From an uncultured Chloroflexia bacterium (GTDB lineage Bacteria > Chloroflexota > Limnocylindria > Limnocylindrales > CSP1-4), in contig CAWEAL010000003.1 in the NCBI GenBank assembly GCA_963807035.1, forward strand, positions 238,716-302,715: a DNA stretch of 64,000 nucleotides, read 5' to 3'. The notes below the pieces were generated by a model, which had not been told where the DNA came from, did no database searches, and saw only the letters and a list, made by a program, of their open reading frames with translations. Below, one piece after another: positions 19,406 through 55,704 of the stretch. Position 1 is the first letter of the stretch, and each line of letters opens with the position of its first letter. The translations under genes and the position numbers were made by a program.

Positions 19406-19490
19406 CGATGGCCCATGGCGAGCCTCTCCCCGGACGTTTCGGCCGCTCTCGCTTCCCTTCGGACGCGCTGGGGAGCGGCAGCTCCCGCGG

Positions 19491-20660
19491 GTGATCGGCT
19501 CGCTCGCGATTTCCCCTGGGCTGGACGCCGAGGCGCTTCCCGACGGGCTGCCGGCGGCCCTCACGGGCGGCCTGCCGGCCACGTCGTTCGGCGGCCTGCC
19601 ACGGCCGGTCGACTCGGACCGAGTGATCACGACCGGTTTCGTCGCGCTCGACGCGATCCTCGGACCGGGCGGGGTGCCCCGCGATGCGGCGGTCGCCCTG
19701 TGCGGCGATCCATCGAGCGGTCGGACGACCCTCGCCCTGCGGCTCGTCGCCGGGGCCCAGGCCAGCGGCTCGATCGCCGCCTGGGTGGACCTTGCCCGGA
19801 GCCTGGATCCGGTCGAGGCGGTTGCCCGGGGAGTTCGCCTGGAATGGCTCGTCGTCCTCGAGCCAGCCTCGCCCGACGAAGGGATCGCGATGGCCGGATC
19901 GCTCCTCGCCGGGCGGTCGGTCGACGTCCTCGTGGTCGACCTGCCGGAGGACGCCCGGGCGCTCGCACGCAACGATCTGCCGCCAAGGGAGGGTCCACCA
20001 CGGGACAGCCATCCACCGAAACGCTCACCGAGCCTGGCCAATCGCCTCGAACGCCTGGCTGCGCTCGCCCGGCGGGCCGGTGTCCTGCTCATCGTCCTCG
20101 AGCCGCCGGGGCTCGAGCGGGAGCTGGCAGCCGCCGTGGGCTCGTCGACAGCGCTCCGGCTCGAGCTGGCCCGTCGATCGTGGATCCGGCTCGGCCGGGA
20201 TGTCGTCGGCCAGCGCACCGAGGTGGTCGTCGGTCGGAACCGGTTCGGCCCAACGGGCCGTCGCGTGGAGCTCCGGATCCTGTACGCGGAAGGCGGGAGC
20301 CGGGACGCCTGCCTCCGGCGCGATTCGCTCCTCGTCGATCTCCTTGGCCCGGCCGTACCCGGTGCCGTGCCAGCTTGCATGGCCGTGCCCGGGGCGATCG
20401 CTCCAGGCACGGCCACCACCACCTACGCCCCCATCGGCCTGCCATCACGGATTCATGATCGTGCGACGTCTCCACCTCCTCTGGACACACTTGCCACTCC
20501 GGCTCGCCCGGGCCCGCTCCGCCTCGTTCCCGACCGGGCCGGTGATCCTGGGCGGCCAACCCTGGGCGGCCGGGACCGTCCTCGACGCGAGCCCGGCGGC
20601 GACCGAGCTCGGCGTCAAGCGGGGGATGCCGCTCGGGAGCGCGCACCGGCTCGCGCCTGA
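19491..20660 (+). CDS. imuA: ImuA' (RecA/SulA-fold mutasome accessory protein); 5' end ambiguous
   Basis: TTGFVALDAILGPGGVPRDAAVALCGDPSSGRTTLALRL..AWVDL..VDVLVVDL RecA-like core. GTG 19491 is the first start in this frame. A near-leaderless ATG at 19415 lies in the frame one nt back and would need a +1 correction near 19484. The 3' end overlaps imuB by 206 nt. Confidence 0.75.
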   Translation: MIGSLAISPGLDAEALPDGLPAALTGGLPATSFGGLPRPVDSDRVITTGFVALDAILGPGGVPRDAAVALCGDPSSGRTTLALRLVAGAQASGSIAAWVDLARSLDPVEAVARGVRLEWLVVLEPASPDEGIAMAGSLLAGRSVDVLVVDLPEDARALARNDLPPREGPPRDSHPPKRSPSLANRLERLAALARRAGVLLIVLEPPGLERELAAAVGSSTALRLELARRSWIRLGRDVVGQRTEVVVGRNRFGPTGRRVELRILYAEGGSRDACLRRDSLLVDLLGPAVPGAVPACMAVPGAIAPGTATTTYAPIGLPSRIHDRATSPPPLDTLATPARPGPLRLVPDRAGDPGRPTLGGRDRPRREPGGDRARRQAGDAARERAPARA

Positions 20661-21708
20661 GGCGACCTTCCTCGAGCCCGACCGGGATCGGGATGGCGCG
20701 GCGATCGAAGCGGCACTCGAACGGCTGGCGGCGTTCAGCCCGGGGGTCGCCGGGGCCGCCGACCCGGCCGACCCGACCTTCGGCCTGCTCGAAGTCCAGG
20801 TCGACGGCCTCGACCGGCTGTGGGGCGCGGAGCCGGTGCTTGCCGTCCGCCTCGTTGAGGTCCTCGTGCCGATCCTGCCCGGCCCACCCAGGGTCGGGAT
20901 TGCCGGGACGCGTTTCGCCGCGACGATCGCGGCCGCCACCGCCGCACCGAGGGCTGGCTCGACGATGATCGTCGGGCCCGGCGACGAGGCGCTCTTCCTC
21001 GGGCCGCTGCCGGCCGGCCTGCTCACCCCCGATCCGGACATCCGGGCCCGGCTCGGAAGATTCGGGCTGCGCCGGATCGATGCCGTGGCTCGCCTGCCTC
21101 GATCGTCTCTCATTGCCCGGTTCGGGGACGAAGGTGCCCGGATCCACGCCCGGGCGACCGGCGAGGAGCTCGAGCCGTTCCGTCCGCGCCGCGCGCCCGA
21201 ACGGTTGTGCTTGGGGATCGGCCTGGAACCGCCGATCGAGGAGCTCGAGCCGCTCCGGTTCGTCCTCCATCGCCTGACCGCGGCGCTGGCCGACCAGCTG
21301 GTTGCCAGGGGAGCGGCAACCGGCCGGGTCAGCCTACGGCTCAGCCTGGATCCGGCGTTCGCCATATCCGGCAGCCCGACGGAAATGAGCGTGGAGCAGC
21401 GCCTGCCGGAGCCAACGTCGGATGCCGAGGCGGTCGAACGCCTCCTGTTCGCCCGCCTCGAGCGCGAGCCACCGCCGGTCGCCGTAGCCCGCCTCGAGCT
21501 GGAGCTGGCCGAGGTCGCCCCGGCCGCCGGCCAGCAGCTGGCCCTGTTCATCCCCCAGGCGAACCGGCTCGCCCGGCTCCGCTGGCAGCTCGCCCGGCTC
21601 GCCCTGGCCTTCGGCGACGATCGCGTCGGCCGGGTCGAGCTGGCAGATCCCGAGGCGCCCCTGGCCGAGGGACGCTGGACCTGGCATCCGGTCGAGGTGG
21701 GCCCGTGA
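20455..21708 (+). CDS. imuB: ImuB (inactive Y-family polymerase-like), core ORF ending at a stop next to a frame break
   Basis: N-terminus RRLHLLWTHLPLRLA..GVKRGMPLGSA. Y-family palm-like layout without the catalytic acidic triad. QLALF beta-clamp-type motif. Confidence 0.85.
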   Translation: MIVRRLHLLWTHLPLRLARARSASFPTGPVILGGQPWAAGTVLDASPAATELGVKRGMPLGSAHRLAPEATFLEPDRDRDGAAIEAALERLAAFSPGVAGAADPADPTFGLLEVQVDGLDRLWGAEPVLAVRLVEVLVPILPGPPRVGIAGTRFAATIAAATAAPRAGSTMIVGPGDEALFLGPLPAGLLTPDPDIRARLGRFGLRRIDAVARLPRSSLIARFGDEGARIHARATGEELEPFRPRRAPERLCLGIGLEPPIEELEPLRFVLHRLTAALADQLVARGAATGRVSLRLSLDPAFAISGSPTEMSVEQRLPEPTSDAEAVERLLFARLEREPPPVAVARLELELAEVAPAAGQQLALFIPQANRLARLRWQLARLALAFGDDRVGRVELADPEAPLAEGRWTWHPVEVGP

Positions 21709-21712
21709 GCCG

Positions 21713-22036
21713 GTGTGCGATCGAGGTTCCACCCTTGCCCGACAGCCCGCCGCGCCTGCCCGAGAGCTCGCCCGGGGTTCCGCCGCGATGACCCGGCTGC
21801 TGCGCGAGCATCCCTCGATCGACGTCGAGCTCGATCCGGCCGGCCGCCTCGTCGCGATTCGCTGGGCCGGCCGGCGGGAGGCTGTCGAGGTCTGCAATCG
21901 CTGGCGGGTCGACGAAGCCTGGTGGCGCCAGCCGATCGCCCGCGATTACTTCAAGGTCGTCGGACCGCGCTGGCTGGCCCTGGTCTACCTCGACCGGCTC
22001 AATGGCTCATGGCACCTCGAGCGAGTCTACGACTGA
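21713..22036 (+). CDS. ImuB C-terminal-module-like ORF (detached; conserved part starts around ATG 21788)
   Basis: RWRVDEAWWRQPIARDYFKV..GPRWLALVYLD..SWHLERVYD resembles the tail I recall at the end of full-length ImuB proteins. It lies in the +1 frame relative to imuB. Confidence 0.6.
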   Translation: MCDRGSTLARQPAAPARELARGSAAMTRLLREHPSIDVELDPAGRLVAIRWAGRREAVEVCNRWRVDEAWWRQPIARDYFKVVGPRWLALVYLDRLNGSWHLERVYD

Positions 22037-22420
22037 CGCACCGCTGCTTCGGGGTCGCCCGGGGGCAGGGCCTCGCCCGACCGCCCCGCCTGGACCGATT
22101 TGGGGGCTCCGACCGACCATACGGCGGCTGCTGGCGGAATCTGGCACAAACCGTGGAGGCCCCCCGGCGCGCCGCCCGACGCGGGCCCGACGCGCCGCGC
22201 AAGCGCGGACCGTGGTCGTGCCGCCCGACGCGGGCTCAACGTGCCGCTACTTCGGGATGTTGCCCGCGACGAACAGCACAACCAGCCCGATCAGCACGCA
22301 GGCGAGCACGCCCGCCCCGATCACGTCGCGCAATCGCAGATCCATTGCCGCCTACTGTACCCGCCGGCCTCGCGGAACGCCGAGACACCCGATGCGAATC
22401 CGAGACCCATCCCGGCATTG

Positions 22421-22458
22421 CACGAGGCCCCATCGCACCCATGCGACGGGGCCTCGTG
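22421..22458. other. 17-bp inverted repeat (hairpin) in the imuB-dnaE2 spacer
   Basis: CACGAGGCCCCATCGCA-ccca-TGCGACGGGGCCTCGTG with one mismatch. No U-tract on either strand. Confidence 0.5.
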
Positions 22459-22678
22459 GGCTCCTGCGCCCGTGCTCGAGCAGCAGGGCGGGTCGGCGGA
22501 CCGGCTGACGGGGTCGGTCGCCGCCAAACACAGACGCGAACCCCCAGGTGCGCATCCGATCTGGCTTGCATGAGTGACGCCGGAGCCCTCTGAAATGTTG
22601 CGCCCTGGGCGCCTGATCTTTTGCCGGCCGGGGCGGTTGCGACCGTCCGCTCCGGACTCCCGCTCCCGACCCGCGGCA

Positions 22679-22708
22679 TTGACACAAACAGAACGGATGT
22701 TCGATCAT
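22679..22708 (+). promoter_or_regulatory. dnaE2 promoter (TTGACA-N18-GATCAT) with a LexA/Cheo box AGAACGGATGTTCGA in the spacer
   Basis: GAAC-N4-GTTC at 22691-22702. ATG 22714 lies 5 nt after the -10-like hexamer, so the mRNA is probably leaderless. Confidence 0.8.
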
Positions 22709-22713
22709 TGGCC

Positions 22714-25700
22714 ATGGCCTACGCCGAACTCCACTGCCACACGAACTTCTCGTTCCTCGACGGCGCGTCGGCCGCCGACGAGCTGGTCGAACGGGCGCTG
22801 GCACTCGGCCTGACCGGGCTGGCAGTCACCGATCACAACGGCCTCTACGGGGTCGTCCGCTTTGCCGCGACCGCCCGCGAGGCGGGGCTTCGGCCGGTGC
22901 TCGGGGTCGAGATCGAGCTGCTCGATCCGTTCGTGCCGGATCCCGAGCGGATCGTCGTCCCGGCCCGCCGCCGGCCTGCCAGCGGGGCGCGACGCCACGG
23001 CCAGGGGCGCACCTCCGATCCGGCGGTCGTCCCGATCGAAGGCGTGCCGGCCCGACCCCGACCGGAACGGGCCCGGTTGCCCGGCCGGCGAGAGCCGGTC
23101 AAGGAGGACCTGCGCGGGATCGGTGCCGGCTCACGCGGCCCGCATCTCGTCCTCCTGGCCCGCGATTCGACCGGCTACCGGAGCCTGTGCCGGCTGATCA
23201 GCCGGGCGAACCTGGCCGGGACGAAGGGCGTGCCCCGCTTCAGCCAGGCCCTCCTGGCCGATCACACGGAGGGCCTCCTGGCCCTCTCCGGCTGCCGCGA
23301 CGGGGAGCTTGCCCGACGGCTCCGGGTGGGCGACCGGGATGGAGCGCGGCGGGTCGCCGAAGGCTATGCGACGCTTTTCGGCGGGAGCACGTCGAAGGGA
23401 CAGACCGGACGGGCCGGGGCTCAGGCCGGTGGCGCCGCGGCGGCTGGTTTCATCCTCGAGCTCCAGCACCACCTCCTGCCCGAGGACGACTGGCTGGTCG
23501 CCGAGACCACCCGCCTGGCCGAGGAGCTGGGCCTGCCCTGCGCCGTCACGAACAACGTCCACTACGCCCTGCCCGAGGGACGCGAGCTGCAGGACGTGAT
23601 CAGCGCGATCCGTCACGGCCGGACCCTTGACACGCTGGCCGATCTGCGCCGGCCCGACGGTGAGTCGTACCTCAAGTCGGAGGTCGAGATGCTGGCCCTG
23701 CCACCGGGCGACCGGGCCGCCCCGGATAATGACCTGGGCAACGACTCGGACCATGATCCGCGGACCGCCCGGGCGTGGGCCGCCGGGGTGGCCACGGCCG
23801 CCGAGATCGCCGCAGCCTGCACCGTCGACCTCGGCTTCGAGCGCTATCGCTTTCCGGGCTTCAGCGTCCCCCCGGGCGAGACTCCGTTCAGTCACCTGGC
23901 CGAGCTGTGCCACGCTGGCGCCCGGCGGCGCTACCACCCGCTCACCCCGGCCGTCCTCAGCCAGCTCAGCCACGAGCTCGCGGTCATCGAGCGGACCGGC
24001 CTGGCCGAGTTCTTCCTGATCTGCTGGGACCTGATGCGCTTCGCCCGGGAGCGGCGGATTCCCGCCCAGGGCCGGGGCAGCGCCGCCGATTCGATCGTGG
24101 CCTACGTCCTGGGGATCACCCGGGTCGACCCGATCCGCCACAACCTCCTGTTCGAGCGGTTCATCAACGAGGGCCGGACGACCTACCCGGACGTCGACAT
24201 CGACTTCTCGTCCGAGCGCCGGGAGGAGATCATCCAGTACGTCTACGGCAAGTACGGCCCCGAGCACACCGGGATGGTCTGCAACGTCGTCACCTATCGG
24301 GCCCGCTCGGTCGTGCGCGAGGTCGGCGTTGCCCTCGGATTCCCCCGGCCGCTGGTCGACCGGGTGGCCAGGGCCCTCGAGACCTACGACTCGGTGATGG
24401 TCCGGCGCGACCTGGAGTCGGACGGCGGATTCGCCGAGTTCTTCCGGCGGCCGGCCGAACCGGCCGGTCCGGCGGCTCCCATAGCCGAGCGGCACGGACT
24501 GGCCGATCGGATGGGCCGGCTCAACCTGCCGGGCAAGCCGGCGATCCGGTCCGGCAGCGCCACCGACGACAAGGGAGGTCCGGGTGACTCTCCGGCGAGC
24601 GTCGCCTGGCTCCAATCCGGACGCGGCACCGGCCGGCTCGACGGCCGTTCGATCGATCCTGAGAGCGGCGTGCTCCTGCCCGCCGAGCGGCGAACCGACA
24701 AGCTCGGCCGTCCGAATCACTGGGCCGGCGATGGCCCGATCGCCGCCACGTCCCGGGCCGGCAGCACGGTCGGCCTGTCGGACTGGGAGCGCTGGCTCGA
24801 GCTCTGCGCCCGGATGGACGGTTTCCCCCGCCACCTGAGCATCCACAGCGGGGGGATGCTGATCACGGCCGCGCCCCTGATCGACATCGCCCCGCTCGAG
24901 CGGGCGACGATGCCCGGCCGGGTCGTCGTCCAGTACGACAAGCGCGACGTCGAGACGATCAAGCTGATCAAGCTCGACCTGCTCGGCCTGGGGATGCTGG
25001 CGGCCATCGACGAGACGGTCCAGCTGATCGAGCACGACTGCGCCGTGTGCCTCGACCTCGATCGGCTGCCCGAGGAGGTCCCCGAGGTCTTCGGGATGCT
25101 CCAGGCCGCCGACACCGTGGGCGTCTTCCAGGTCGAGAGCCGGGCCCAGATGCAGACCCTGCCGAAATCGCGCCCGAACTGCCTCGACGACCTCGTGGTC
25201 GAGGTGGCGATCATCCGGCCGGGCCCGATCCAGGGCAACGCCGTCCATCCCTACCTGCGCCGCAAGCAGGGTCTCGAACCGGTCACCTACCTCCACCCGA
25301 GCCTGGCCCCGATCCTGGCCGACAGCCTCGGGGTGATCCTGTACCAGGAGCAGGTGATGCGGATCGCGATCGACGTGGCCGGCTTCAGCGCCGGCGATTC
25401 CGACGGGTTCCGGCGGGCCATGGGGACCTGGCGCTCGACCGCCGAGATGGAGAAGCTCCACGCCCGCTTCGTCGACGGTTGCGTGGCGGTCCAGGGCATG
25501 CCCTGCGACGATGCCGAGGAGCTCTTCCGGCGGGTCGCCGGGTTTGCCTCGTTCGGCTTCGCCAAGAGCCATGCCGCCGCCTTTGCCCGGACCGCCTACG
25601 AGTCGTCGTTCCTCAAGCTGTTCTATCCCGCCCAGTTCCTGGTCGGCCTGATCAACGCCCAGCCGATGGGCTTCTACCCGGTCGAGGTGCTGGTCAACGA

Positions 25701-26697: not shown

Positions 26698-26864
26698 TCA
26701 GGCAATGAAGATGGACGCGCCCGGCGACCGGTCGGTGCAGGGGACGGACCGTCGTTCGGTCCGAGCCTCCGTTCGGGATCCGCCACCTCGGCCGACGATC
26801 ATCCGGAGCGCGTCCTGAAGTTCATTCGTCGAACCGGGACGATCGGATTGCGAACGACCCGAGG

Positions 26865-27765: not shown

Positions 27766-30049
27766 ATGGTTCGAGCCCGGCGTGCGGCGATGGCCGCATT
27801 CGTTCTGCTCTGGTCGGTCGCAGCCCTGGCGCTCGCTACGGCGCCGCCCCCGCTCTCGCTGGCAGGCGCGCAGGGCGCTATCCCGGCGGTGTCCTGGCCG
27901 ACGTCGGCCGGCCTGCTGATCGCCGAGGTCGTGACCGGCGGCACGTCTGGGTCCGATGAGTACATCGAGCTCACGAACGCCGGACCCGACTCGATCGACC
28001 TCAACGGGCTCGAGGTCGCCTACGCCTCCTCCACCGGCACGAGCGCGGTCCGGCGGACCGGCTGGACCGTGGCCACCCCGCTCGATCCGGGCCGCCATCT
28101 CCTGATCGCCAACTCGGCCGGCATCTATGCGGTCGGCGCCGACGCCACCTACACCGCCGGGATCGCCGCGACGGGCGGGGCAATCGTCGTGCGCCCGATC
28201 GGTGGGACGCCGATCGACGCGGTCGGCTGGGGCGACGCAACGAACGCGTTCGTCGAAGGGCTGGCCGCCCCTGCCCCACCTGCGGGCTCGAGCATCGAAC
28301 GCCGTCCGGGCGGCCCGGACGGGAACGTGACCGACACGAACGACAACGCCTCCGATTGGGCGATCAACCCGGCTCCGGACCCGGAGAACCTCGGCACCCC
28401 GCCGCGCCCGGCGCCCGGCGCGACGGCGACCCCGACTCCGAAGCCCTCGGCGACGCCCACTCCCGTGCCGACGCCCACTCCGGTGCCGACGCCCACTCCG
28501 GTGCCGACGCCGACTCCGGTGCCGACGCCGACCGCGACTGCCACGCCGACAGCTTCGCCAACGCCGGCACCCAGCCCCACGCCCACGTCCACGCCCACGC
28601 CCGCCCCGACGCCGACCCCAGCCCCGACGCCGACCCCAGCCCCGACGCCGCCGTTGGCGCCCACGCCAACGCCGACGCCGGCCCCTACCCCAACGCCCGT
28701 TCCGACGCTCGTGCCAACCCCGACGCCCACCACCACGCCGGCACCCACGCCAACACCGACCTCCAGCCCGTCGGCGATTGCGATTGCCCAGGCCCTCGTG
28801 CAGGGTGGGACGGTGACCGTCGAGGGGATCGAGACGACCGGTCCCACCCTGATCGACCCGAGCGGCCGTCTCGTCGTCATCCAGGACTCGAGCGCCGCCG
28901 TCGAGATCCGCCTGCCCGCTGCCGGCAGCAAGGCTGCGGCCGGCATGCTCGGACACCACCCGACCGTGGGAGCACTCCTCCATGTGACCGGGACGATCGG
29001 GCGAGCCTTCGGCGCCCCACGGCTGACCGTCGCGAGCGTGAGTTGGCTCGGCAGCGCGACGCCGCCACCGGCCGTCGAGATCGTCGCCGCTCCGGGCCAG
29101 GGCCTCGAATGGCGCCTCGTCAGGATCGCCGGTCGGCTCGATGCCATCCACAAGCTCGGTGACCGCTGGCGCGCCGAGCTGATCGTCGGATCGACGCGGA
29201 TCCCGCTCGTCGGGCTGACCGGGGCCCGGATCCCCGTGGGGAGCCTGACTGCGGGTCGCCGGGTCACGGTCGTCGGCATCGTCCGGCGCGCCTATCCGAC
29301 GGCGATCGACCAGCGGTTTGCGATCGAGCCGCGCTCCATCTCCGACCTCGCATTCGCCGACCCGGCCCGCCCCGGTCCCACCGGCAAGCCGACGGCCGGG
29401 TCGGCGGGCGTCGACGTGGGCACCGGACCGGGAGCGGCCCCAGGCGGCTCCCCGGCCGCGGTTGCGTCCGGCCGGCCGATCGTCGACCTGCGCGACCTGG
29501 CCGCCCATCGCGGCCAGACGATCCGGGTCGCCGGCCTCGTCACCTCCGTGGCAGGGGCGGTCATCTCGCTCGACGATGGGACGTCATCGGGCCGGCTGAT
29601 CCTCAGCGGTCCGGCCGCCCCGTATCTCGACCTCGTCGAGGTCGGCGATCCGCTCGACGTCGTGGGGCTCGTGGAGATCGACGCAAGCGGCCCATACCTG
29701 CTCGTGACCGACCCGGACGGAGTCGCCCGGGCCGGCGACCCGAACGCCGCTGCCCAGGAACCGGCCAGTGGCGATCCCTCGGCCGGTGCCTCGCCCGCGA
29801 CGGCCGGCGTCGCTGCGGCCGGACCTGCCTCGAGCGAGCCCGGCCCGATCGTCGGTGCGCCCGGATCACCCGGCGCCACGGCAGGCTCGATCGGACCGCT
29901 GGCGGAGCTCGGCCTCGTCCTGCTCGGTGCGCTCGCGGCCATCGCCGTCGTCCTGCCCTTCGTCCGGCGTGGAGTGCGATTTCGGACGGTCCGCTTCGTC
30001 AGCGGTCCATGGCCCGGCCGCCCCGGATCCGGGCGCGGACGGATCCTGA
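27766..30049 (+). CDS. secreted, C-terminally anchored protein: signal peptide, lamin-tail domain (LTD), ~120-aa Pro/Thr linker, three OB-fold-like barrels, TM helix; 3' end needs a +1 correction
   Basis: LTD block [38 protein letters not shown] linker at 28430-28775. [20 protein letters not shown]. As written the frame stays open to 31059. A +1 correction at CCC 30013-30015 ends it at TGA 30047-30049. Confidence 0.7.
28430..28775 (+). repeat. coding tandem repeats for the Pro/Thr-rich linker (18-nt GTGCCGACGCCCACTCCG-type units)
   Basis: Repeated [12 protein letters not shown] units are visible in both DNA and protein. Confidence 0.8.
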
Positions 30050-30244: not shown

Positions 30245-31059
30245 TTGGTCTTGCCGAACGCGGATCCCCGCGTCGCACTCCCGGCCGGAGAACGGCAGTA
30301 CCACATCGGACTCGGCCCGGGCGACCTGGCCGAGTACATCCTCCTCCCCGGCGACCCCGATCGGACCGCACGGATCGCCACACGCCTCGAGAACGTCGAA
30401 GGCTCGTGGCAACACCGGGAGTTCGCCTCGGTCACCGGGACGTACCGCGGCGAGCGGGTCTCGGTCGTGTCGACCGGGATCGGCAGCGACAACGTCGAGA
30501 TCGTCGTGGCGGAGATCCTGGCGATCACGAATCGTCCGACCTTCGTCCGCGTCGGGTCGTGCGGCGGGCTCCAACCGGAGATCGCGATCGGCGACCTGGT
30601 CATCTCGACCGGCGCGGTCCGGCTCGAGGCGACGACCGGCTTCTTCGTCCACGACGGCTATCCCGGCGGTCGCCGACTACGAGGCGGTCGCGGCACTCGT
30701 CGAGGCCGCGGCGCGAGCTTGGGCACCGGGCGCACGTCGGCATCACGGCGACGGCCCCCGGGTTCTTCGGCGCGCAAGGTCGTCCGATCCCGCAGCTGCC
30801 CATCCGGTACCCTGACCTCGCCGAGGAGATGGCGCGCCAGCGCGTCCTCAACTTCGAGATGGAGGCATCGGCATTGTTGGTCCTGGCCGGGTTGGCTGGC
30901 AGTCGGGCCGGGGTCGTCTGCGCGGTCTACGCGCACCGACCGTCGGGCGACTTCGCAGTCGGCGAAGCCAGGAGCCGCGCTGAGGACGGCCTGCGTCGAG
31001 ACCGGGCTCGAAGGGCTCCGGATCCTCGCCGCGATGGATCGCCAGAAGGCGGGGCGTAG
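30245..31059 (+). pseudogene. PNP/UDP-family nucleoside phosphorylase (Udp-like) with at least three +1 frame breaks
   Basis: Conserved segments lie in three frames. ..[36 protein letters not shown] runs to ~30664. [15 protein letters not shown] runs to ~30710. [33 protein letters not shown] runs to ~30990. [16 protein letters not shown] follows. No clean stop. Confidence 0.8.
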
Positions 31060-31159
31060 GGGCGGACCGCTGGCGGCCCTCCCTGTGGACCGGAACGTAA
31101 GGGCGGATACGGAGCGAGCGCTCCGTAACGCCAGGTATTCGTGGAGGAGGAGATCAGGA

Positions 31160-32558: not shown

Positions 32559-32725
32559 GGCCGTGGCGTCGTACGATGCGCTCACGTGCCGGACGTCCCG
32601 TGATCCCGATGACCCATGGCGGTGGTCGACGGGAGCGTTCGCGCCGCACACTTCACCGATGAGCTGAGACCCAGCCCCGGTCGGGGCCGCGCCCGTCGCC
32701 GGCGCACTTCAGGAGGTATCCCACG

Positions 32726-33749
<1,024 letters not shown>

Positions 33750-33762
33750 GCGAGCGACCGAC

Positions 33763-36875
<3,113 letters not shown>

Positions 36876-44668: not shown

Positions 44669-45748
44669 GTGGCGCGACGCATGCGACCCACCAGCGGCCC
44701 CCTGGATTCCCGCGCGAAGGCGATCCTCCAGGCCGTCATCGACGATTACGTGACGACCGCGAGCCCGGTCGGCTCCCAGGCGCTCGTCGAGCGGTACAGC
44801 CTCGGTGTGAGCAGCGCCACCGTGCGGGCGATCCTGGCCGACCTCGAGGCCGCCGGCCTGCTCACCCATCCACACACCTCCGCGGGCCGGGTACCGACCG
44901 ATGCCGGCTACCGCAGTTACGTCGAGACGATCGTCGACCTGGGCGCTCCCCCGCCCGCGGTCGAGCAGCTGATGATCCGCCACCAGTTCGGCCAGGTCGA
45001 GTTCGCCAGCGAGCAGTGGTTCCGGCTGGCTGCTACGACGCTCGCCTCGATGACCCGGTCCGCCGGGCTTGCCACCGCGGCCAAGCCCGCCGCCGCCCGC
45101 GTCCGCAGGATCGACCTGGTCGCGATCCAGGATCGCCTCGCCAGCCTCATCCTCGTCCTGCGCGAGGGCTCGATCAAGCAGGGCCTGATCGCCCTCGACC
45201 TGCCGGTGACCCAGTCGGACCTGACCCGGGTGGCCAACCTCCTGAACGACCGCCTCGCCCAGCTGACCGCGACCGAGATCGTGGCCGTCCTGCCCCGCCT
45301 CGAGCGGGCCCTCGGCGGCGACGAGGAGACGCGCGGCCTGACCCGCAAGATCGCCGAGCGGATCATCCGGACGGTCGCCGAGTTCGACGCCCTGCGCGTC
45401 GAAGAGGTCTACAGCGACGGCCTGCTCAACGTGATGGAGGCGCCCGAGTTCGCCCAGAGCGAGAAGCTCCGGCGAGTCTTCACCGCCCTCGAGAACCGGG
45501 CCTACCTGGCCGACCTGATCGCGATCGTGACCGAGACCGGTCGGATCCACGTCTTCATCGGGCGCGAGAATACGCCGGCCGAGATGGGCGAGGTCTCCCT
45601 CGTCCTCGCCCCGTACGGCCGTCCCGGCCGGGCGGTCGGTGTGGTCGGCGTCCTCGGCCCGACCCGGATGGCCTACGCCCAGGCGATCGGGACGGTCGGC
45701 TTCGTGTCCGGCCTGATGAACGAGCTGGTCGACCACCTCTACTCCTGA
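44669..45748 (+). CDS. hrcA: heat-inducible transcription repressor HrcA
   Basis: [71 protein letters not shown] lies upstream of GTG 44669. Confidence 0.95.
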
Positions 45749-45777
45749 TCCAACCACCGAGGACCTAGTTCAGCCAC

Positions 45778-46386
45778 ATGCCAGAGCCAACCCACATCCG
45801 CCACGACCGACATCGAACCCGGGCCGAGGAGCGGCTGGACGAGATCGACATCTCGCCGGCGAAGCTGCTGGCCGACATCGAGGCGCTCAAGGCCGAGCGC
45901 GACGCGGGGCAGGCGCAGGCCGCCGACTATCTGCTCGCCCTGCAGCGCGAGCGGGCCGAGTTCCAGAACTTCAAGCGGCGGACCGCCGAGGAGCGCGAGC
46001 GCGAGGCGGGCCTCGCCAACGACTCGCTGATCCACAAGGTGCTCGTCCTCGCCGACGATTTCGACCGGGCGATCGAGGCCCGACCGGCCAACCTGCCCGA
46101 TGGCGACGCCGCCGCCTGGGCCGAGGGCGTGGCCGCCATCGACCGCAAGCTGCGGGCGCTGCTCGAGAGCGAAGGGGTCCGCCGGATCGAGGTGAAGCCC
46201 GGGATGGCGTTCGATCCGCGCGAGCACGAGGCGCTGGTCAACGTCCCGGCGACCGAGCATCCCGAGGGCACGGTCGTCGCCGAGCTCCAGCGAGGCTACC
46301 GGATCCGCGACCGGATCCTGCGGCCTGCCCGGGTCGCGATCGCGGCGGGCCAGGAGGCCCCGGACCCCGCCCAGCCACTCAACTGA
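45778..46386 (+). CDS. grpE: nucleotide exchange factor GrpE
   Basis: [41 protein letters not shown]. Confidence 0.95.
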
Positions 46387-46436
46387 TCAACGACCACCCC
46401 GACCGAACAGACGAACGTCAAGGAGAACCATCAGCG

Positions 46437-48377
46437 ATGGGCAAGATCATCGGAATCGACCTCGGCACGACGAACTCGGTTGTCGCGGTCATGGAAGGCG
46501 GGGAGCCGACCGTGATCGCCTCGGCTGAGGGTGGCCGGACCGTGCCCTCGGTTGTCGCCTTCACCAAGACCGGCGAGCGCCTCGTCGGCCAGCTGGCCAA
46601 GCGCCAGGCGGTCACCAACCCGACCAACACGATCTACTCGATCAAGCGGTTCATGGGCCGTCGCTGGGACGACCCCGAGACGAAGCGCTCGATGGAGCTC
46701 GTGCCCTACAAGGTCCAGAAGGACGCCAAGAGCGACGGCCTGGTGGTCCTCGCCAACGACAAGCCGTATACCCCGCCCGAGATCAGCGCGATGATCCTCC
46801 AGAAGCTCAAGGCGGACGCCGAGGCCTACCTCGGCGAGAAGATCACCGAGGCCGTGATCACCGTCCCGGCCTACTTCGACGATACCCAGCGCCAGGCGAC
46901 CAAGGATGCCGGCCGGATCGCCGGGCTCGAGGTCAAGCGGATCATCAACGAGCCGACCGCCTCGGCCCTCGCCTACGGCCTGGACAAGAAGCACGACGAG
47001 AAGATCGCCGTCTACGACCTGGGCGGTGGCACCTTCGACATCTCGATCCTCGAGCTGGGCGACGGGGTCTTCGAGGTCAAGGCGACCAACGGCGACACCC
47101 ACCTGGGTGGCGACGACTTCGACCAGCGGGTGATCGAGTGGCTCCTGGCCGAATTCAAGAAGGACCAGGGGATCGACCTGCGCAAGGACCAGCAGGCCCT
47201 CCAGCGCCTCAAGGAGGCGGCCGAGAAGGCCAAGATCGAGCTGAGCTCGACCAGCCAGACCGAGATCAACCTGCCCTACATCACGGCCGATGCGAGCGGC
47301 CCGAAGCACCTCGTCATCTCGCTCTCCCGGGCGAAGCTCGAGGACCTCGTCTCCGACCTGATCGACAAGACCCGTGAGCCCGTCCAGAAGGCCCTCAAGG
47401 ACGCCGGCCTCAAGCCGGGCGAGATCGACGAGGTCGTCCTCGTCGGCGGGATGACCCGGATGCCGGCAGTCATCGACGCGGTCAAGGCGATGTTCGGCGG
47501 CAAGGAGCCCAACCGGGGGGTCAACCCCGACGAGGTCGTGGCCGTCGGTGCGGCGATCCAGGCCGGCGTCCTGGCCGGTGACGTCAAGGACGTCCTGCTC
47601 CTCGACGTCACCCCGCTGTCGCTCGGCATCGAGACCCTCGGCAGCGTGATGACCCGGCTGATCGAGCGCAATACGACGATCCCGAGCTCGAAGTCGCAGA
47701 TCTTCTCGACCGCCTCGGACAACCAGAGCCAGGTCGAGATCCATGTCCTCCAGGGCGAGCGCGAGTTCGCCCAGGACAACAAGACCCTCGGCCGGTTCAT
47801 CCTCGACGGGATCCCGCCCGCGCCCCGGGGCGTCCCCCAGGTCGAGGTGACCTTCGACATCGACGCCAACGGGATCCTCGACGTGAAGGCCAAGGACCGG
47901 GCGACCGGCAAGGAGCAGCAGGTCCGGATCACGGCTTCGTCGATGCTCTCCAAGGACGACGTGGACAAGATGGTCCGCGACGCCCAGGAGCACGCCGACG
48001 AGGACCGCAAGCGGCGCGACGAGGTCGAGGCCCGCAACCAGGCGGAGGCCCTCACGTTCCAGGCCGAGCGGACCCTCAAGGACCTCGGCGACAAGGTCTC
48101 GGCCGAGGATCGGGCCGACGCCGAGCGGAAGATCGAGGAACTGCGGACGGCCCTGAAGGGCTCGGACGCCGCCGCGGTCACGGCCGGCGGGACGGCTCTG
48201 GCGGAGACGCTCAGCCGGATCTCGACCGCCGCCTACCAGGCGGCCCAGGCCGAGGCTGCCGCGACCGGCGAGGGACCGGGCCCGGATGGGTCCTCGTCCT
48301 CCGACGGGACGTCCACCGGGGAGCCCCCCGCGGGCGACGCCGGCGAGACGGTCGAGGGCGAGTTCAAGGAGGTCTAG
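46437..48377 (+). CDS. dnaK: molecular chaperone DnaK
   Basis: [25 protein letters not shown] and the full Hsp70 architecture. Confidence 0.98.
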
Positions 48378-48378: not shown

Positions 48379-48397
48379 TCCGGGCGCTTGGCCCGGA
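48379..48397 (+). terminator. weak terminator-like hairpin after dnaK
   Basis: TCCGGGC-gcttg-GCCCGGA starting 2 nt after the stop. No U-tract. Confidence 0.3.
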
Positions 48398-48694
48398 ATC
48401 CGACGGCTTGTCGTTCGTCCTCGGGCCCGCCCGGCTGGACAACCCGCGGCGGGCTCGTCGTAGCTCCTGTGCGGGTTCCCGGGGAGTCGGGGGCGGCGGA
48501 CCACGTCGGTTGCTTGCACCAGCTGCAAGTCCAGGTCCGCCTCCGGTTCGCGTTCGGCCCGCCTCCGCTCCGAGTCCAGGTCGCGGGCACAACCAACCGG
48601 GGCCGGCCCTGGCTCCGGAAGCGGCGACGCGAACGGGAAGTGGCCGGGTCGACTGTCGCGTCGGACGGCGCGCGGCGGTACCATTCCCGTCCCG

Positions 48695-49753: not shown

Positions 49754-50583
49754 GGGCCGCCCTCCCAGCCGCCAATCGTGGCCCCGCGGCGAGCATTCGG
49801 CGGCCCGTGGCGCGGGGCGCCCGCCAGGTCTTCGAATACCGGGCGATCGTCTATCGACGGGTCTGGCGTGGCTCGATCTTCTCGACCTTCCTCTCGCCGA
49901 TCCTGTTCCTCGCGGCGATGGGAATCGGCCTGGGTGGCTTCGTCGACCACGGCAGCGCGATCGCCTCGCTCGGCGGGGTCTCGTACGCTGCGTTCCTGGC
50001 GCCCGGCCTGCTGGCCGCCCAGGGGATGCAGACGGCGACGTCCGAGGCCACCTGGCCGGTGATGGGCGGGTTCACCTGGGATCGCACGTTCCACGGGATG
50101 TATGCCACCCCGGTCTCGGTCGCCGGCATCGTCGCCGGCCACCTCGCCTGGATGGTGGCCCGCCTGACCCTGGTCGCATCCGTCTTCTTCCTCGTGATGC
50201 TCGCCTTCGGCTTTGTCGCTTCGCCGCTCGGCATCCTGGGCATCGGCGCGTCGGTCCTGACCGGGTTGGCCTTCGGTGCGCCGATCACGGCATTCTCGGC
50301 GGGCCAGAAGAACGACAGTGCCTTCAGCGCGATCAACCGGTTCATGATCACGCCGCTGTTCCTCTTCTCGGGGACGTTCTTCCCGATCGAGCAGCTGCCC
50401 GCGATCATCCGCCCGATCGCCTGGCTGACCCCGACCTTCCACGGCGTCGCGCTCGCCCGCGGGCTCTCGCTGGGCACCCTCGACGTGGCCGGCGCGATCG
50501 TCCACCTGGCCGTCCTCGGGGCGTACGTCGCGGTCGGCATCGGCTGGTCGCTGATCGCGTTCCGACGGACCCTCTCGAGGTAG
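49750..50583 (+). CDS. ABC-2 type transporter permease
   Basis: Six TM segments and ABC-2 family-like sequence. 4-nt overlap with the ATPase gene. Confidence 0.8.
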   Translation: MRAALPAANRGPAASIRRPVARGARQVFEYRAIVYRRVWRGSIFSTFLSPILFLAAMGIGLGGFVDHGSAIASLGGVSYAAFLAPGLLAAQGMQTATSEATWPVMGGFTWDRTFHGMYATPVSVAGIVAGHLAWMVARLTLVASVFFLVMLAFGFVASPLGILGIGASVLTGLAFGAPITAFSAGQKNDSAFSAINRFMITPLFLFSGTFFPIEQLPAIIRPIAWLTPTFHGVALARGLSLGTLDVAGAIVHLAVLGAYVAVGIGWSLIAFRRTLSR

Positions 50584-50591
50584 CCGGCGGA

Positions 50592-51389
50592 ATGATCGCG
50601 ACCTGGATCCTGCCGACACGGTCCTTCGCGCCACGGGCCGACCGGCTGGTCGAGCGCAACGTGATGAACTACCGGCGGACCTGGCTGATGCTGGTCTCGG
50701 GCTTCTTCGAGCCGCTCTTCTACCTGCTCGGGATCGGGTTCGGGATCGGGGCGCTCGTCGGCACCGTGAGCGGGCCCGACGGCAACCCGATCCCGTACGG
50801 CGTCTTCGTTGCCCCGGGCCTGCTCGCGTCGTCCGCGATGAATGGGGCGATCTACGACTCGACCTTCAACATCTTCTTCAAGCTGCGCTACGCCAAGACG
50901 TACGACGCGATCCTGTCGACCCCGATGGGGATCAACGACATCGCCGTGGGTGAGATCACCTGGGCCCTGATCCGGGGCACCCTCTATGCGATCGGCTTCC
51001 TGGCCGTGATGGTCGTCCTCGGGCTGGTCCGCTCGCCCTGGGTCGTCCTCACCCTGCCGGCGGCGCTCCTGATCGGGTTCGCCTTCGCCGCGGTCGGGAT
51101 GGCGGCCACGACCTGGGTCCGGAGCTGGACCGACTTCGACTACATCTTTGTGGTCACCCTGCCGCTCTTCCTGTTCTCCTCGACGTTCTATCCCCTGAGC
51201 GTCTACCCCGAGCCCCTCCGGACGATCGTCTCGCTCACGCCCCTGTCGCGCTGCATCGACCTGCTCCGATCGCTGGCCCTTGGCCAGCTCAGCCCGGTCC
51301 TGCTTGTCGATATCGGCTACCTGTCGGTGATGGGCGCGGTCGGCCTGTGGGTGGTTTCGCGCCGGCTCGACAAGCTCCTGATGAAGTAG
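50592..51389 (+). CDS. ABC-2 type transporter permease (second subunit)
   Basis: Paralogous layout to the preceding permease. Confidence 0.8.
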   Translation: MIATWILPTRSFAPRADRLVERNVMNYRRTWLMLVSGFFEPLFYLLGIGFGIGALVGTVSGPDGNPIPYGVFVAPGLLASSAMNGAIYDSTFNIFFKLRYAKTYDAILSTPMGINDIAVGEITWALIRGTLYAIGFLAVMVVLGLVRSPWVVLTLPAALLIGFAFAAVGMAATTWVRSWTDFDYIFVVTLPLFLFSSTFYPLSVYPEPLRTIVSLTPLSRCIDLLRSLALGQLSPVLLVDIGYLSVMGAVGLWVVSRRLDKLLMK

Positions 51390-51395
51390 CCGGCC

Positions 51396-52106
51396 GTGGG
51401 CGATCAAGCGGGACTGGCCGCGCTCGAGGCCGAGATCGTGGCCTGCCGGCGCTGCCCGCGCCTGGTCGAGTGGCGTGAGCGGGTCGCCCGCGAGAAGGTC
51501 GCTCGCTACGCCGACGAGCCGTATTGGGGCCGGCCGCTGCCCGGTTTCGGCGACCCGCAGGCGCGCATCCTGATCGTGGGCCTGGCCCCGGCCGCCCACG
51601 GCGGCAACCGGACCGGGCGGGTCTTCACCGGCGACCGGTCGGGCGACTTCCTGTGGACCGCGCTGCACGAGACGGGCCTGGCCGATCGGGACAGCTCGCG
51701 CCGGGCGGACGACGGCCTGACCCTGACCGATGCCTGGATTGCCGCCGCCGTCCGCTGCGCCCCACCCCTCAACCGGCCGACGAACGAAGAGCGCGACAAC
51801 TGCGCACCGTTCCTCGTCCGCGAGCTCGCCCGGCTGAGCAAGGTCCGGGTCATCGTGCCGTTGGGCGGCTTCGGCTGGGAGGCGGTGCTGCGCACGCTCG
51901 CTACGCTCGGTCACCCGACCCCCCGGCCGAAGCCTCGGTTCGGCCACGGGGCGGAGGTGGAGATCGGGCCGTATCACCTCGTCGCCTCGTTCCATCCGAG
52001 CCAGCAGAACACATTCACCGGGCGGCTGACGGCGTCGATGCTGGCCGCGGTGATGGCCCGTGCGACGTCACTTGCAGGCGGCCCGGATCGGCCTACACTC
52101 ATCTGA
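51396..52106 (+). CDS. uracil-DNA glycosylase, family 4/5 type (GLAPAAHG motif suggests family 5 UdgB)
   Basis: CRRCPRL, GLAPAAHGGNRTGRVFTGD, SFHPSQQN. Confidence 0.8.
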   Translation: MGDQAGLAALEAEIVACRRCPRLVEWRERVAREKVARYADEPYWGRPLPGFGDPQARILIVGLAPAAHGGNRTGRVFTGDRSGDFLWTALHETGLADRDSSRRADDGLTLTDAWIAAAVRCAPPLNRPTNEERDNCAPFLVRELARLSKVRVIVPLGGFGWEAVLRTLATLGHPTPRPKPRFGHGAEVEIGPYHLVASFHPSQQNTFTGRLTASMLAAVMARATSLAGGPDRPTLI

Positions 52107-52108
52107 GC

Positions 52109-52555
52109 GTGATCTACATCGTCTGGCTCGTCCTGGGTGTCGGCCTGCTTCTGGCCGAGCTCCATACGGCGGCGTTCTACGCCATCTTCCTCGGTGTGGG
52201 GGCGCTCGTCGCGGGCGTCCTGGCCTTCGTCCTGCCCGACAGTCCGATCTGGCTCCAGGCCTTCCTCGCCCTGGCCGTCGCGGTGATCGGCGTCGCGATC
52301 GTCCGGCCGCGCTTCGCCACCCGCTTCCTCCGGCACCAGGGTGGGGCCGCGTCGCGCGGCGTCCACGGCGGCTTCGTCGGCGAGCGCGCCCTGGCTACCG
52401 ACGCGATCGGCGACGAGCTCCATCCGGGTCATGTCCGGCTGGCCGGGGAGAGCTGGTTGGCGATCTCTCACGATGGTTCCGAGATCGGGGGTAACGCTCC
52501 CGTGATCGTCACCGCAGTTCGGGGAACGACGCTCGTCGTCCGCCCCGCCGGCTGA
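52109..52555 (+). CDS. NfeD family membrane protein
   Basis: Three TM segments then an OB-like C-terminal part (GHVRLAGESWLA..VRGTTLVV). GTG 52109 lies 2 nt after the UDG stop. Upstream of an SPFH gene, as is typical. Confidence 0.75.
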   Translation: MIYIVWLVLGVGLLLAELHTAAFYAIFLGVGALVAGVLAFVLPDSPIWLQAFLALAVAVIGVAIVRPRFATRFLRHQGGAASRGVHGGFVGERALATDAIGDELHPGHVRLAGESWLAISHDGSEIGGNAPVIVTAVRGTTLVVRPAG

Positions 52556-52581
52556 GCCGGCCTCGCCTGGAGTCGCCCGCA

Positions 52582-53538
52582 ATGGACAATGCCAATATCG
52601 CCGGGATCGTCGTCCTCGTCCTGATCATCCTGATCATCGTCTTCGCCCTCAACCTGCTCCGATCGGTCGTCAACCTGGTCCAGCAGGGGTCGGTCGGGGT
52701 GGTCAAGCGGCTCGGCGAGTTCCGCGGCATCCACGACCCGGGCCTGGTCCTGATCATGCCCTTCATCAATTCGATCGTGATGGTCGACATGCGCGAGTTT
52801 CCTCGTCCTGGCGATCGCCAGGAGGTGATCACCAAGGACAACGTGGTCGTCGCCGTCAACGCCACGATCTTCACCCAGGTCGTTGACGCGAAGCAGGCCC
52901 TGTTCAGCATCGCCAACTTCGACGTCGCGATCGACGCCCTCGCCCGGACCGCGCTCCGGTCGGTCATCGGCACACTGTCGCTCGACGAGGCGCTGTCGGA
53001 GCGCGAGCGGATCAACGTCGACGTCCAGCAGCAGATGGAGGCGGTCACCGACAAGTGGGGGATCCGGATCAACCGGATCGAGATCGTGGAGATCACCCCA
53101 CCGCCCCAGATCCTCCAGGCGCTCGCCCTCCAGAAGCAGGCCGACCAGGAAAAGCGGGCCAAGATTCTCCAGTCGGAGGGCCTCCAGCAGTCGGCGGTCA
53201 ACGTGGCCGACGGCAACCGGCAGGCCGCGATCAAGAGCGCCGAGGGCGAGCGGCAGTCGGCGATCCTGCGGGCCGAGGGCAACCGGCAGGCGGCGATCCT
53301 CGAGGCGGAGGGCCGCGCACAGGCGATCAAGACCGTCTACGACGCGATCACCGCGGCCGCCCCTAGCCCGACCCTGGTCGCGATCCTCCAGCTCGACACG
53401 CTCTCGAAGTTCGCCGCCAGCCCGAATGCCAAGCTGATCATCCCGGCCGAGTCCTCGGCCCTGCTCGGCGCCGCAGCGGCGCTGCGCTCGGTCTTCGGCG
53501 AGGTGCCGACCGAGATCATCACCCCGCCGTCGGCCTGA
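52582..53538 (+). CDS. SPFH/band-7 (stomatin-like) protein
   Basis: N-terminal TM then the SPFH core VVKRLGEF..GLVLIMPFI..ITKDNV..RSVIG and a coiled-coil tail. Confidence 0.9.
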   Translation: MDNANIAGIVVLVLIILIIVFALNLLRSVVNLVQQGSVGVVKRLGEFRGIHDPGLVLIMPFINSIVMVDMREFPRPGDRQEVITKDNVVVAVNATIFTQVVDAKQALFSIANFDVAIDALARTALRSVIGTLSLDEALSERERINVDVQQQMEAVTDKWGIRINRIEIVEITPPPQILQALALQKQADQEKRAKILQSEGLQQSAVNVADGNRQAAIKSAEGERQSAILRAEGNRQAAILEAEGRAQAIKTVYDAITAAAPSPTLVAILQLDTLSKFAASPNAKLIIPAESSALLGAAAALRSVFGEVPTEIITPPSA

Positions 53539-53587
53539 TCCGGGCGGGGGACGCCCCGCGGCCACCTCTCGTATCCTTGGCGATCGA

Positions 53588-54706
53588 ATGGTGACCGAAC
53601 GCGACTACTACGAGATCCTCGAGCTCGACCGGACGGCCGACGACGCCGCGATCAAGCGCTCGTTCCGGCGGCTCGCCCAGAAGTGGCATCCGGACGTGAA
53701 CGCCGAAGCCGGCTCGGAGGTCCGTTTCAAGGAGATCAACGAGGCCTACCAGGTCCTCTCGGATCCGACCAAGAAGCAGGCCTACGACATGTTCGGCAAG
53801 GCCGGCGTCGACGCTGGGGCGGCCGGCGCCGGGTTCGGCCAGGGCTTCGGCGGCTTCGGCGACATCTTCGACGCCTTCTTCGGCGGGGCGGCGGCCGGCG
53901 GGCGCCGGACCGGACGGTCGAACACCGGCTCCGATCTCCGCTACGACCTGCGGATCACCTTCGCCGAGGCAGTCCTGGGCACCGAGAAGGAGATCGACTA
54001 CCCGGTCCTCGACCGCTGCGAGACGTGCAGCGGAACGGGGGCGAAGCCGGGCACGAGCGCGTCGACCTGTCCCCAGTGCAACGGGCGGGGCGAGATCCGC
54101 AGCGTCCGCCAGACGATGCTCGGCCAGATGGTCAACGTCCAGCCCTGCCCGCGCTGCCGGGGCGAGGGCCGGATCGTCGATACGCCGTGCGAGACCTGTC
54201 GGGGCGATGGCCGCGTCGAGCGCCGCAAGAAGCTCCGGGTCAGCGTCCCGGCCGGAATCGACGAGGGCCACCAGATCCGGCTGTCAGGCGAGGGTGAGGT
54301 CGGACCGCACGGCGGCCCGCCGGGAAGCCTGTACGTCGCCGTCCATATCCAGGCCCACAAGACGCTCAAGCGCGAAGGCAGCGAGCTCTTTCTCGAGCGC
54401 GAGATCTCGATCGCCCAGGCCGCCCTCGGGACCCGCCTGACGATCCCCACGATCGAGGGGGACGAGCAGGTCGAGGTCAAGCCCGGGACCCAGCCCGGCG
54501 CCGAGATCCGGCTGCGGGGCAAAGGCGTGCCCCACCTCCGCCGGGCGAACGTCCGGGGCGACCTGCACGTCTTCATCAAAGTGGCCGTGCCCACCCGGCT
54601 GACTCGCAAACAGCGCGAGCTGCTCGAGGCGCTCGCCGCCGAGTCGGGCGAGGTCGTGGCCTCGCCGGGCGGGATCCTCGACCGGGTGAAGGACGCGCTT
54701 GGCTGA
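53588..54706 (+). CDS. dnaJ: molecular chaperone DnaJ
   Basis: J domain with HPD (KWHPDVN), G/F region and four CxxCxGxG zinc motifs. Confidence 0.95.
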   Translation: MVTERDYYEILELDRTADDAAIKRSFRRLAQKWHPDVNAEAGSEVRFKEINEAYQVLSDPTKKQAYDMFGKAGVDAGAAGAGFGQGFGGFGDIFDAFFGGAAAGGRRTGRSNTGSDLRYDLRITFAEAVLGTEKEIDYPVLDRCETCSGTGAKPGTSASTCPQCNGRGEIRSVRQTMLGQMVNVQPCPRCRGEGRIVDTPCETCRGDGRVERRKKLRVSVPAGIDEGHQIRLSGEGEVGPHGGPPGSLYVAVHIQAHKTLKREGSELFLEREISIAQAALGTRLTIPTIEGDEQVEVKPGTQPGAEIRLRGKGVPHLRRANVRGDLHVFIKVAVPTRLTRKQRELLEALAAESGEVVASPGGILDRVKDALG

Positions 54707-55704
54707 CGCCCGGCCGCCGGCCGATGACGCAGGCGTGCCCGAGGACGAGGGCCTGAGCGCCGGGGATACCTGGATCGAGCTGTCCGTGCGGGCCGACCTC
54801 GAGGCAGTCGAGGCGGTCAGCGAGATCCTGTCCCGGTTCGCTCGCGGCGGTACGAGCGTCGAGCCCGGCTTCGAGCTGGTCGAGGACGGGCTCGGCGCCA
54901 GGATCGATCCCGACCCGGCCGGCGATCGTCCGGGCCTACCTGCCCGGACGTAATCGGAGCGCCGCGCGGACCGCCGTCCGGCAGACGCGCGAGGCGCTTG
55001 GCCACCTCCAGGCGTTCGACCTGCGGCCGATCAGCGAGCTCGAGGTGTCGGTCGTCCACGAGGCCGACTGGGCCCACGCCTGGAAGGCCCACTTCCCGGT
55101 CCTGCGCCTCGGCCGCCGGCTCGTGATCCGGCCGACCTGGCGCCGGCATCGGAGGCGGCCCGGCGACGTGGTCCTGGCGCTCGATCCAGGAATGGCGTTC
55201 GGGACCGGCCTCCACCCGACGACCCGGCTATGCCTTGTCGGCATCGAGCGGTGGGCCGAAGCCGGGCTCGTCGACGGCGCCCGCGTCCTCGACGTCGGCT
55301 GCGGATCGGGGATCCTGCTGATCGCCGCCGGGCTGTTCGGGGCGGGCAATCCGGCCGGCCCCGGCGGGCTGGTAGGCATCGACACGGACCCGATCGCGGT
55401 CGAAGCGACGACGGCGAACGCGGCGCGCAACCATCTCCGGGTCGACGTCCGCGCCGGCAGCCTGCCGAGCCGGAGCGGGCCGTTCGACCTGGTCGTAGCC
55501 AACCTGATTGCCAGCCTGCTGATTGCCCTGGCCGGGGAGCTGCGCGACGAGCTGCGCCCCGGTGGACGGCTGCTCGCGTCGGGCATCTTCATCGACCGCG
55601 AGGCCGATGTCCGGGTCGCGTTCGAGGCGCTCGGGCTGCGGCTTCTCGAGCGGACGGGCGAGGGAGAGTGGGTCGCTCTCGACTTCGAGCGCCCGGCGGG
55701 CTGA
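54699..55704 (+). CDS. prmA: ribosomal protein L11 methyltransferase, interrupted by one +1 frame break at 54909-54917
   Basis: WIELSVRADLEAVEAVSEIL..ARIDPD in one frame. RPAIVRAYLP..HEADWAHAWKAHF..LDPGMAFGTGLHPTT..VLDVGCGSGIL continues in the next. Confidence 0.85.

Follow-up and report, generated by a model that had tools for sequence, protein, structure and literature searches.

The question raised by this locus is whether several of its conserved genes are truly broken in the organism, are read through by a change of frame, or are damaged only in the deposited sequence. The window, by which we mean the whole stretch of 64,000 nucleotides analyzed here, comes from an uncultured Chloroflexia bacterium (contig CAWEAL010000003.1). 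In it, the conserved protein sequences encoded by gap, eno, prmA, imuA' and a nucleoside phosphorylase gene can be followed only by skipping single nucleotides, always in the +1 direction. A first-pass annotation of the window listed nine such sites. Eight of them stand, one of these (in the C-terminal tail of an LTD-domain protein) only as a probable site, whereas the site in imuB fell away and a new one was added at 31048 (Table 1). We conclude that the breaks very probably result from the erroneous insertion of single bases into the consensus sequence of a long-read metagenome-assembled genome (MAG), and belong neither to the organism's DNA nor to the expression of its genes. Three other explanations have to be considered: plain homopolymer over-calling of short C/G runs by the basecaller or polisher, in which strain variation plays no part; genuine frameshift mutations in the organism or in a sub-population that dominates the reads, which would make the affected genes young pseudogenes; and real +1 recoding by a ribosomal shift (for example of tRNA-Pro on CCC-G) or by polymerase slippage, with the genes functional despite the extra base.

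The window belongs to a soil contig of the Limnocylindria (Chloroflexota). Its GC content is 72% overall and 67-75% along its whole length, third codon positions are C or G in 91% of cases, and the genes between 19 and 57 kb lie nearly all on the plus strand. Relatives were collected by a search with the pgk product, keeping one genome per species, and this yielded 80 syntenic loci, all from uncultured Chloroflexota and mostly from Limnocylindria. The closest of them have Pgk proteins at most 95-96% identical to that of the window and about 84% nucleotide identity. Thirty-three of the 80 loci come from "MFD" MAGs with contigs of up to megabases, which were assembled from Nanopore reads only with Flye and polished by a single Medaka round, no short reads being used for polishing (PMC12313526). 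The remaining 47 non-MFD loci are mostly from short-read MAGs (k141, NODE, palsa, SMAG and Chersky names). Breaks were counted by tblastn of each locus against the open reading frames (ORFs) of all the others, and a break was accepted when a change of frame within a single protein had the support of at least 10 other loci. The boundaries between gap and pgk and between pgk and eno look like breaks and were taken out. The relatives span the window from 19 to 64 kb, and codon-usage segmentation was used instead for the first 19 kb. The census depends on conservation, and its coverage is therefore poor in the first 19 kb and in genes of weak conservation.

The breaks follow the sequencing method. 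The MFD loci contained 50 well-supported +1 breaks and 6 well-supported -1 breaks in 691 kb, compared with a single break in the 644 kb of the other MAG loci (56 versus 1, Fisher p = 4e-15; 50:6, binomial p = 1e-9). Among the closest relatives, loci from MFD MAGs are mixed with those from other MAGs, and phylogeny therefore does not explain the difference in breaks. Projected onto the window, the relatives' breaks are mostly at other positions, with dnaE2, gap, eno and lepA as the genes chiefly affected, and the close relatives have one base fewer at each alignable site of the window. With nine breaks in its 64 kb, the window has a rate similar in magnitude to that of affected MFD loci, and the breaks are clustered, with seven of them within 5.3 kb and four within 390 nucleotides of one gene. 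Alignment to the relatives revealed no further well-supported break at 19-64 kb, including none of the -1 type, and the earlier statement that no plus-strand break needs -1 thus stands wherever the relatives cover the window. None of eight breaks lies on the minus strand, but this is not significant (P ~0.12, an estimate from codon-usage segmentation), as that strand holds about one-quarter of the coding sequence, mostly at 1-19 kb, where there are no relatives. These distributions bear directly on real recoding. In its favor, all the breaks of the window are +1; against it, the breaks track the sequencing project and not phylogeny, and none of the window sites is broken in the 47 non-MFD loci, among them species with 95% identical Pgk, so that no site is conserved there as a frameshift.

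We consider the window assembly itself most likely to be Nanopore-only (metaFlye and Medaka), on the basis of its long-read-like contig, its error signature and the company of the MFD MAGs. The truncated prmA product of the window (P0201) is recorded from one contig of 751,075 bp in NCBI and ENA, and long-read MAGs typically have contigs of this size. Frameshifts caused by indels in Nanopore consensus sequences are well described and are the reason for short-read polishing (PMC9262707). In soil data, Nanopore is reported to give more frameshift errors than HiFi for metaFlye and nanoMDBG (PMC13087279). The present breaks resemble the indel errors of Nanopore-only assemblies, as recognized by IDEEL-type tests, in that single-base indels split intact conserved genes in long contigs, at a rate that depends on the MAG, and are gone from short-read MAGs of the same clade. 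They differ from the textbook case, which consists of deletions or miscounts in long homopolymers, whereas here insertions prevail (50:6), the runs are 1-3 bases long and the surplus base usually differs from its neighbor and stands at a variable site.

Removal of one base per site gave full-length orthologues for Gap, Eno, the phosphorylase and PrmA, stop-free and with no other lesions. For gap, eno and prmA, three-frame translation and alignment to relatives confirmed that the protein passes into the +1 frame where Table 1 indicates, as the first-pass annotation had claimed, and the corrected genes match full-length orthologues. One deletion each was sufficient to regain the full-length ORFs of Gap and Eno. 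Corrected PrmA aligned as one segment with its relatives over residues 1-316, with 81-83% identity to the closest intact orthologues, and a homologue search with its N-terminus had 86% as the closest match; for this gene, an extra C in CCC is an equally possible reading of the surplus base. In the phosphorylase gene, the three sites noted earlier (30665, 30714 and 30986) are real but the count was too low, the fourth at 31048 having been overlooked. Its removal is required to reach the conserved C-terminus ...DRWRPSLWTGT, which is followed by the stop codon. After deletion of G at 30665, C at 30714, A at 30986 and G at 31048, the product covers 99% of 281-amino acid uridine phosphorylases at no more than 93% identity, and the closest match in a homologue search was 93%. 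The break in imuA', regarded as tentative before, was confirmed. The frame of the ATG at 19415 encodes MASLSPDVSAALASLRTRWGAAAP, while the RecA-like body lies in the +1 frame, and the merged N-terminus, MASLSPDVSAALASLRTRWGAAAP followed by RVIGSLA, is identical across the CCCG junction to the invariant N-terminus of the relatives (100% query coverage, 75-81% identity); deletion of a C or of the G gives the same ...AAAP RVIGSL... sequence. In the organism, gap, eno, prmA, imuA' and the phosphorylase gene are almost certainly intact. The flanks of the sites had been described as stop-free and unlike old pseudogenes, and the corrected proteins, which are full-length and stop-free, agree with this. 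When protein alignments are used as a check for colinearity in a single frame, imuB alone turns out to be colinear and the other sites stay frame-broken, the LTD site probably so.

Table 1. Positions of the surplus bases and of related features in the window. Square brackets within codons mark the surplus base or the pair of bases found in place of one.
Feature	Position	Strand	Sequence and reading	Close relatives
imuA' break	19484-19487	+	GCT CCC G CGG (CCCG), one base surplus	
imuB stop codon and following ORF	21706-21708 (stop); 21788-22036 (separate ORF, ATG at 21788)	+	Not a break; spacer of ~80 nucleotides	
LTD-domain protein, C-terminal tail, +1 break	29979-30010	+	Probable; site within ~29980-30010	
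Phosphorylase break 1	30664-30665	+	TAT CCC G GCG, surplus G (or C)	Absent in 10/10
Phosphorylase break 2	30714-30715	+	GCG GCG C GAG, surplus C with a G on either side	Absent in 10/10
Phosphorylase break 3	30986	+	GAG G[A]CG GCC, surplus A	Absent in 10/10
Phosphorylase break 4	31047-31049	+	CAG AAG G CGG, surplus G	Absent in 9/10
Intergenic surplus G	31146	+	GGAGGAGGAG, a stretch resembling a Shine-Dalgarno sequence that precedes the DUF5679 gene	Absent in 10/10
gap (GAPDH) break	33059-33062	+	CTC GAC C GCC GGC, one base surplus	GAC-GCC
eno break	35234-35235	+	CCC GAG C CTG	GAG CTG or GAC CTG
prmA break	54908-54911	+	ATC GA[T][C] CCG ACC	GAT or GAC, then CCG

Two of these sites have a counterpart in another genome. 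L079 (MFD02159.bin.2.67), a locus from another species and another sample but likewise Nanopore-only, has a surplus T (L079:9303) exactly at the gap site, where the window has C, and a surplus G (L079:11474) at most 5 bases from the eno site. The presence of a different base at the same variable codon is in keeping with an error that depends on variable positions and does not fit a conserved recoding signal. The two coincidences suggest that variable codons act as hot spots for the error.

What kind of error, then, adds these bases? The surplus bases of the window are C, C, G, C, A and G, and in one case C or G; those of the relatives also include T and A. To obtain a signature, each site was placed with two target bases opposite one base in the relatives, and the relatives' bases at that place were then compared; random single-base insertions simulated in non-MFD loci served as controls. 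A tandem-allele pattern, meaning two unlike bases that are each present in some of the relatives, was found at 33 of 52 real sites (63%) but at 68 of 220 simulated sites (31%, p = 2e-5). With C-to-CG and G-to-GC sites only, the pattern was seen at 22/27 real and 91/200 simulated sites (p = 4e-4). Examples are GA[G][C] CTG in eno, with GAG and GAC among the relatives, T[A][T]C in L004 (TAC and TTC) and CC[C][G] in L010 (CCC and CCG). A comparison of codon phase was uninformative because the placement rule pushed the simulated set to third positions. By inspection of the site contexts by eye, we found no common methylation motif (GCCGGC or CCGCGG type) beside the insertions.

This signature would be produced if co-assembled strains, or cross-mapping reads of related populations, differed by a single-nucleotide polymorphism (SNP) at the site and the consensus step kept both alleles side by side, turning GAG and GAC into GAGC. 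An error model with cheap deletions would favor this outcome, since it would penalize a deletion in half of the reads more lightly than a mismatch in as many. A minority of sites may be ordinary over-calls of short runs, such as CCG called as CCCG. The tandem-allele mechanism would explain the dominance of insertions, it would explain why the surplus base is usually unlike its neighbor and, through the third codon positions, the C/G bias, and it would also explain the concentration of breaks in conserved genes, where the reads of relatives can cross-map. Given that the breaks are artefacts, we lean slightly toward the view that many of the insertions are strain SNPs written as tandem alleles, with variation between species taken as the proxy for variation between strains. 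The chances seem evenly balanced that this is a systematic, little-described error mode of Nanopore-only assemblies, which leaves a strong +1 excess in the most conserved genes of high-GC MAGs in a catalogue of more than 15,000 species; a brief literature search found no paper on a tandem-allele error pattern.

The explanation that survives best besides this one is plain homopolymer over-calling, which the first-pass annotation had preferred. Its artefact half is upheld by the 56 breaks versus 1, but its mechanism is not, with only 8 of 52 sites compatible with a run. Indels in runs are the classic Nanopore error (PMC9262707), and the prmA and imuA' sites can be read as CCG changed to CCCG and phosphorylase site 4 as G changed to GG. 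However, random insertion would place more sites in runs than were observed (66/220 versus 8/52, p = 0.04), and the commonest two-for-one pairs are CG (16) and GC (9), with few CC (2) or GG (1). Neither the additional A at 30986 nor the additional T that L079 has at the gap site stands in a run, and the runs concerned are 1-3 bases long, a range in which R10.4-type chemistry is reported to be accurate (PMC9262707). The description of the sites as all lying at short C/G runs is likewise correct only in part: most are C/G dinucleotides and not run extensions, the A at 30986 lies between G and C, the C at 30714 lies between Gs, and the LTD site may be at TTT. As an account of the breaks as a whole, over-calling of runs is therefore rather unlikely, although it may contribute the minority of sites mentioned above.

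Genuine frameshift mutations are much less probable. The breaks do stand in the deposited sequence, and frameshifted prmA fragments occur in many long contigs. On the other hand, gap, eno, prmA and the phosphorylase gene are close to intact orthologues and, once corrected, are free of stops and of any further lesion. Decay would not be expected to strike a gene of 850 nucleotides four times independently and leave it otherwise undamaged, and the 50:6 excess of insertions together with the single data source points to the method. In addition to the prmA fragment from the window, PrmA products of 120-170 amino acids (P0122, P0140, P0151, P0163, P0173 and P0210) were found, which come from contigs of 100 kb-3 Mb and are therefore cut by frameshifts and not by contig ends. 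Several of the short PrmA products stop directly after RPTWRRHRR, and P0121, from a 2.4-kb JGI contig, loses frame there too.

Slippage of tRNA-Pro on CCC-N is an established phenomenon when m1G37 or EF-P is limiting, and the window has features that recall it. The flanks are conserved and stop-free, and CCC-G stands in frame at imuA', phosphorylase site 1 and prmA, while eno has CCC one codon upstream. The earlier count of five in-frame CCC-G was too high, the number being three of nine junctions. The known case shares the +1 direction with the window, but it is a translation error on in-frame genes and not the reading of genes with an extra base, and most of the window sites have no slippery codon and none is conserved. 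The programmed +1 frameshift of prfB (RF2) is alike in that one base is skipped to make the full protein. There, however, the shift takes place at a single conserved site, which contains an in-frame stop, is preceded by a Shine-Dalgarno-like stimulator and is kept across bacteria. The sites of the window, by contrast, are scattered, unconserved and, as far as the alignments show, without the prfB elements. Real recoding is the least credible of the explanations, since six of the nine junctions (GAC-C, GAG-C, GCG-C, G-A-CG, AAG-G and the LTD site) offer the P-site tRNA no way to re-pair, the site runs of 1-3 bases include no A/T run long enough (about 7 or more) for transcript slippage, the phosphorylase gene (850 nucleotides) would need four shifts in 390 nucleotides, the central enzymes Gap and Eno would depend on inefficient shifts, and a similar surplus base is found in intergenic DNA (31146).

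Several points weigh against reading the breaks as consensus errors. The absence of the surplus bases from the DNA rests on relatives that are at most 93% identical and not on reads of the same strain, and the Nanopore-only origin of the window is itself a deduction. In-frame CCC-G at 3/9 junctions compares with 1.1% of codons (p = 1e-4 for random codons), as slippage of tRNA-Pro predicts. This excess falls to p = 0.05 when four-fold codon boxes are considered, of which Pro makes up 9.5%, and CCCG overlaps 4/52 sites overall. As to the tandem-allele mechanism, it uses variation between species for variation between strains, and 19 of 52 sites do not have the pattern. The strain itself can be found elsewhere: Logan sequences L081 (ERR12035932; 100% identical over 1471 nucleotides) and L082 (ERR11523645; one mismatch in 1055 nucleotides, 99.9%) match the window at 44986-46466, a region with no break site. 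They were reached through GrpE, and they place this strain, or one almost identical to it, in both runs.

If the breaks are consensus errors, gene calls, pseudogene counts and completeness estimates based on MAGs, as well as protein databases, take in truncated or out-of-frame products; an 84-amino acid fragment of the broken prmA is already present in a public protein collection (P0201). The errors fall preferentially in conserved housekeeping genes that serve as markers. If the tandem-allele mechanism is true, two-for-one columns at polymorphic sites would allow the errors to be located and mended with no need of short reads, and polishing tools could be adjusted to mixed populations.

The break at 21699-21708 in imuB was ruled out. 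ImuB of L083 aligns with the window over residues 1-413 of 415 in one frame, up to the stop codon, and the ORF in the +1 frame, which had been taken for the continuation of imuB, is a separate conserved gene for 82 amino acids (MTRLLREHP...WHLERVYD) between imuB and dnaE2. The products of L083 and L086 align with it over residues 1-82 with 89-93% identity, and imuB and this ORF are called as two genes in the relatives. The 82-amino acid product had no Pfam hit, and in this clade the gene may extend the imuA'-imuB-dnaE2 cassette by a fourth, previously undescribed member. At its other end, imuB starts (VRRLHLLWTH..., 20461) about 200 nucleotides upstream of the imuA' stop codon (20660), and the same long overlap is implied in L086. 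A frame switch at 20441 proposed by codon-usage segmentation reflects this overlap, which the relatives also have, and is not a break.

The LTD-domain protein is colinear with a 762-amino acid relative up to 29979. From there, the main frame is stop-free to 31059, through the next gene, whereas the +1 frame encodes a short C-terminal motif and a stop codon, resembling the tail of L009 (...AAPDPGNDAP, then stop). The tail thus probably carries a +1 break, a judgment made from the reading frames; the site placed tentatively at ~30013 is supported to that extent, but the exact base is not, as the DNA of this region is too divergent from the relatives to pin it. Upstream, the Pro/Thr/Ala-rich linker of the same protein (28401-28778) flips the frame of the codon-usage model and back. 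This frame detour was rejected because the protein aligns with the relatives in one frame, and it calls for caution in composition-based detection of frameshifts.

Outside the coding regions, the surplus G at 31146 may be of the same error kind or a natural indel, as judged from the alignment. Single-base differences from nearly all close relatives were also seen at 32561, 32607 and 38649 (one insertion and two deletions), and these may be natural indels or errors of the same kind.

In the first 19 kb, codon-usage segmentation flagged comEC alone. This gene lies on the minus strand in two ORFs, one with the Competence domain (7853-6309) followed by a metallo-beta-lactamase ORF. At the junction (6306-6311), TGA overlaps ATG as ATGA, with GGAGGAG just upstream, and the second ORF is stop-free for about 240 nucleotides into the following HD-domain gene (4933-5171). 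The two-ORF state is either a natural split or an error of the -1 type. Finally, gap, pgk and eno are adjacent on the plus strand (32726-36309) with no tpiA between pgk and eno, and the same order is found in L083 and L086.

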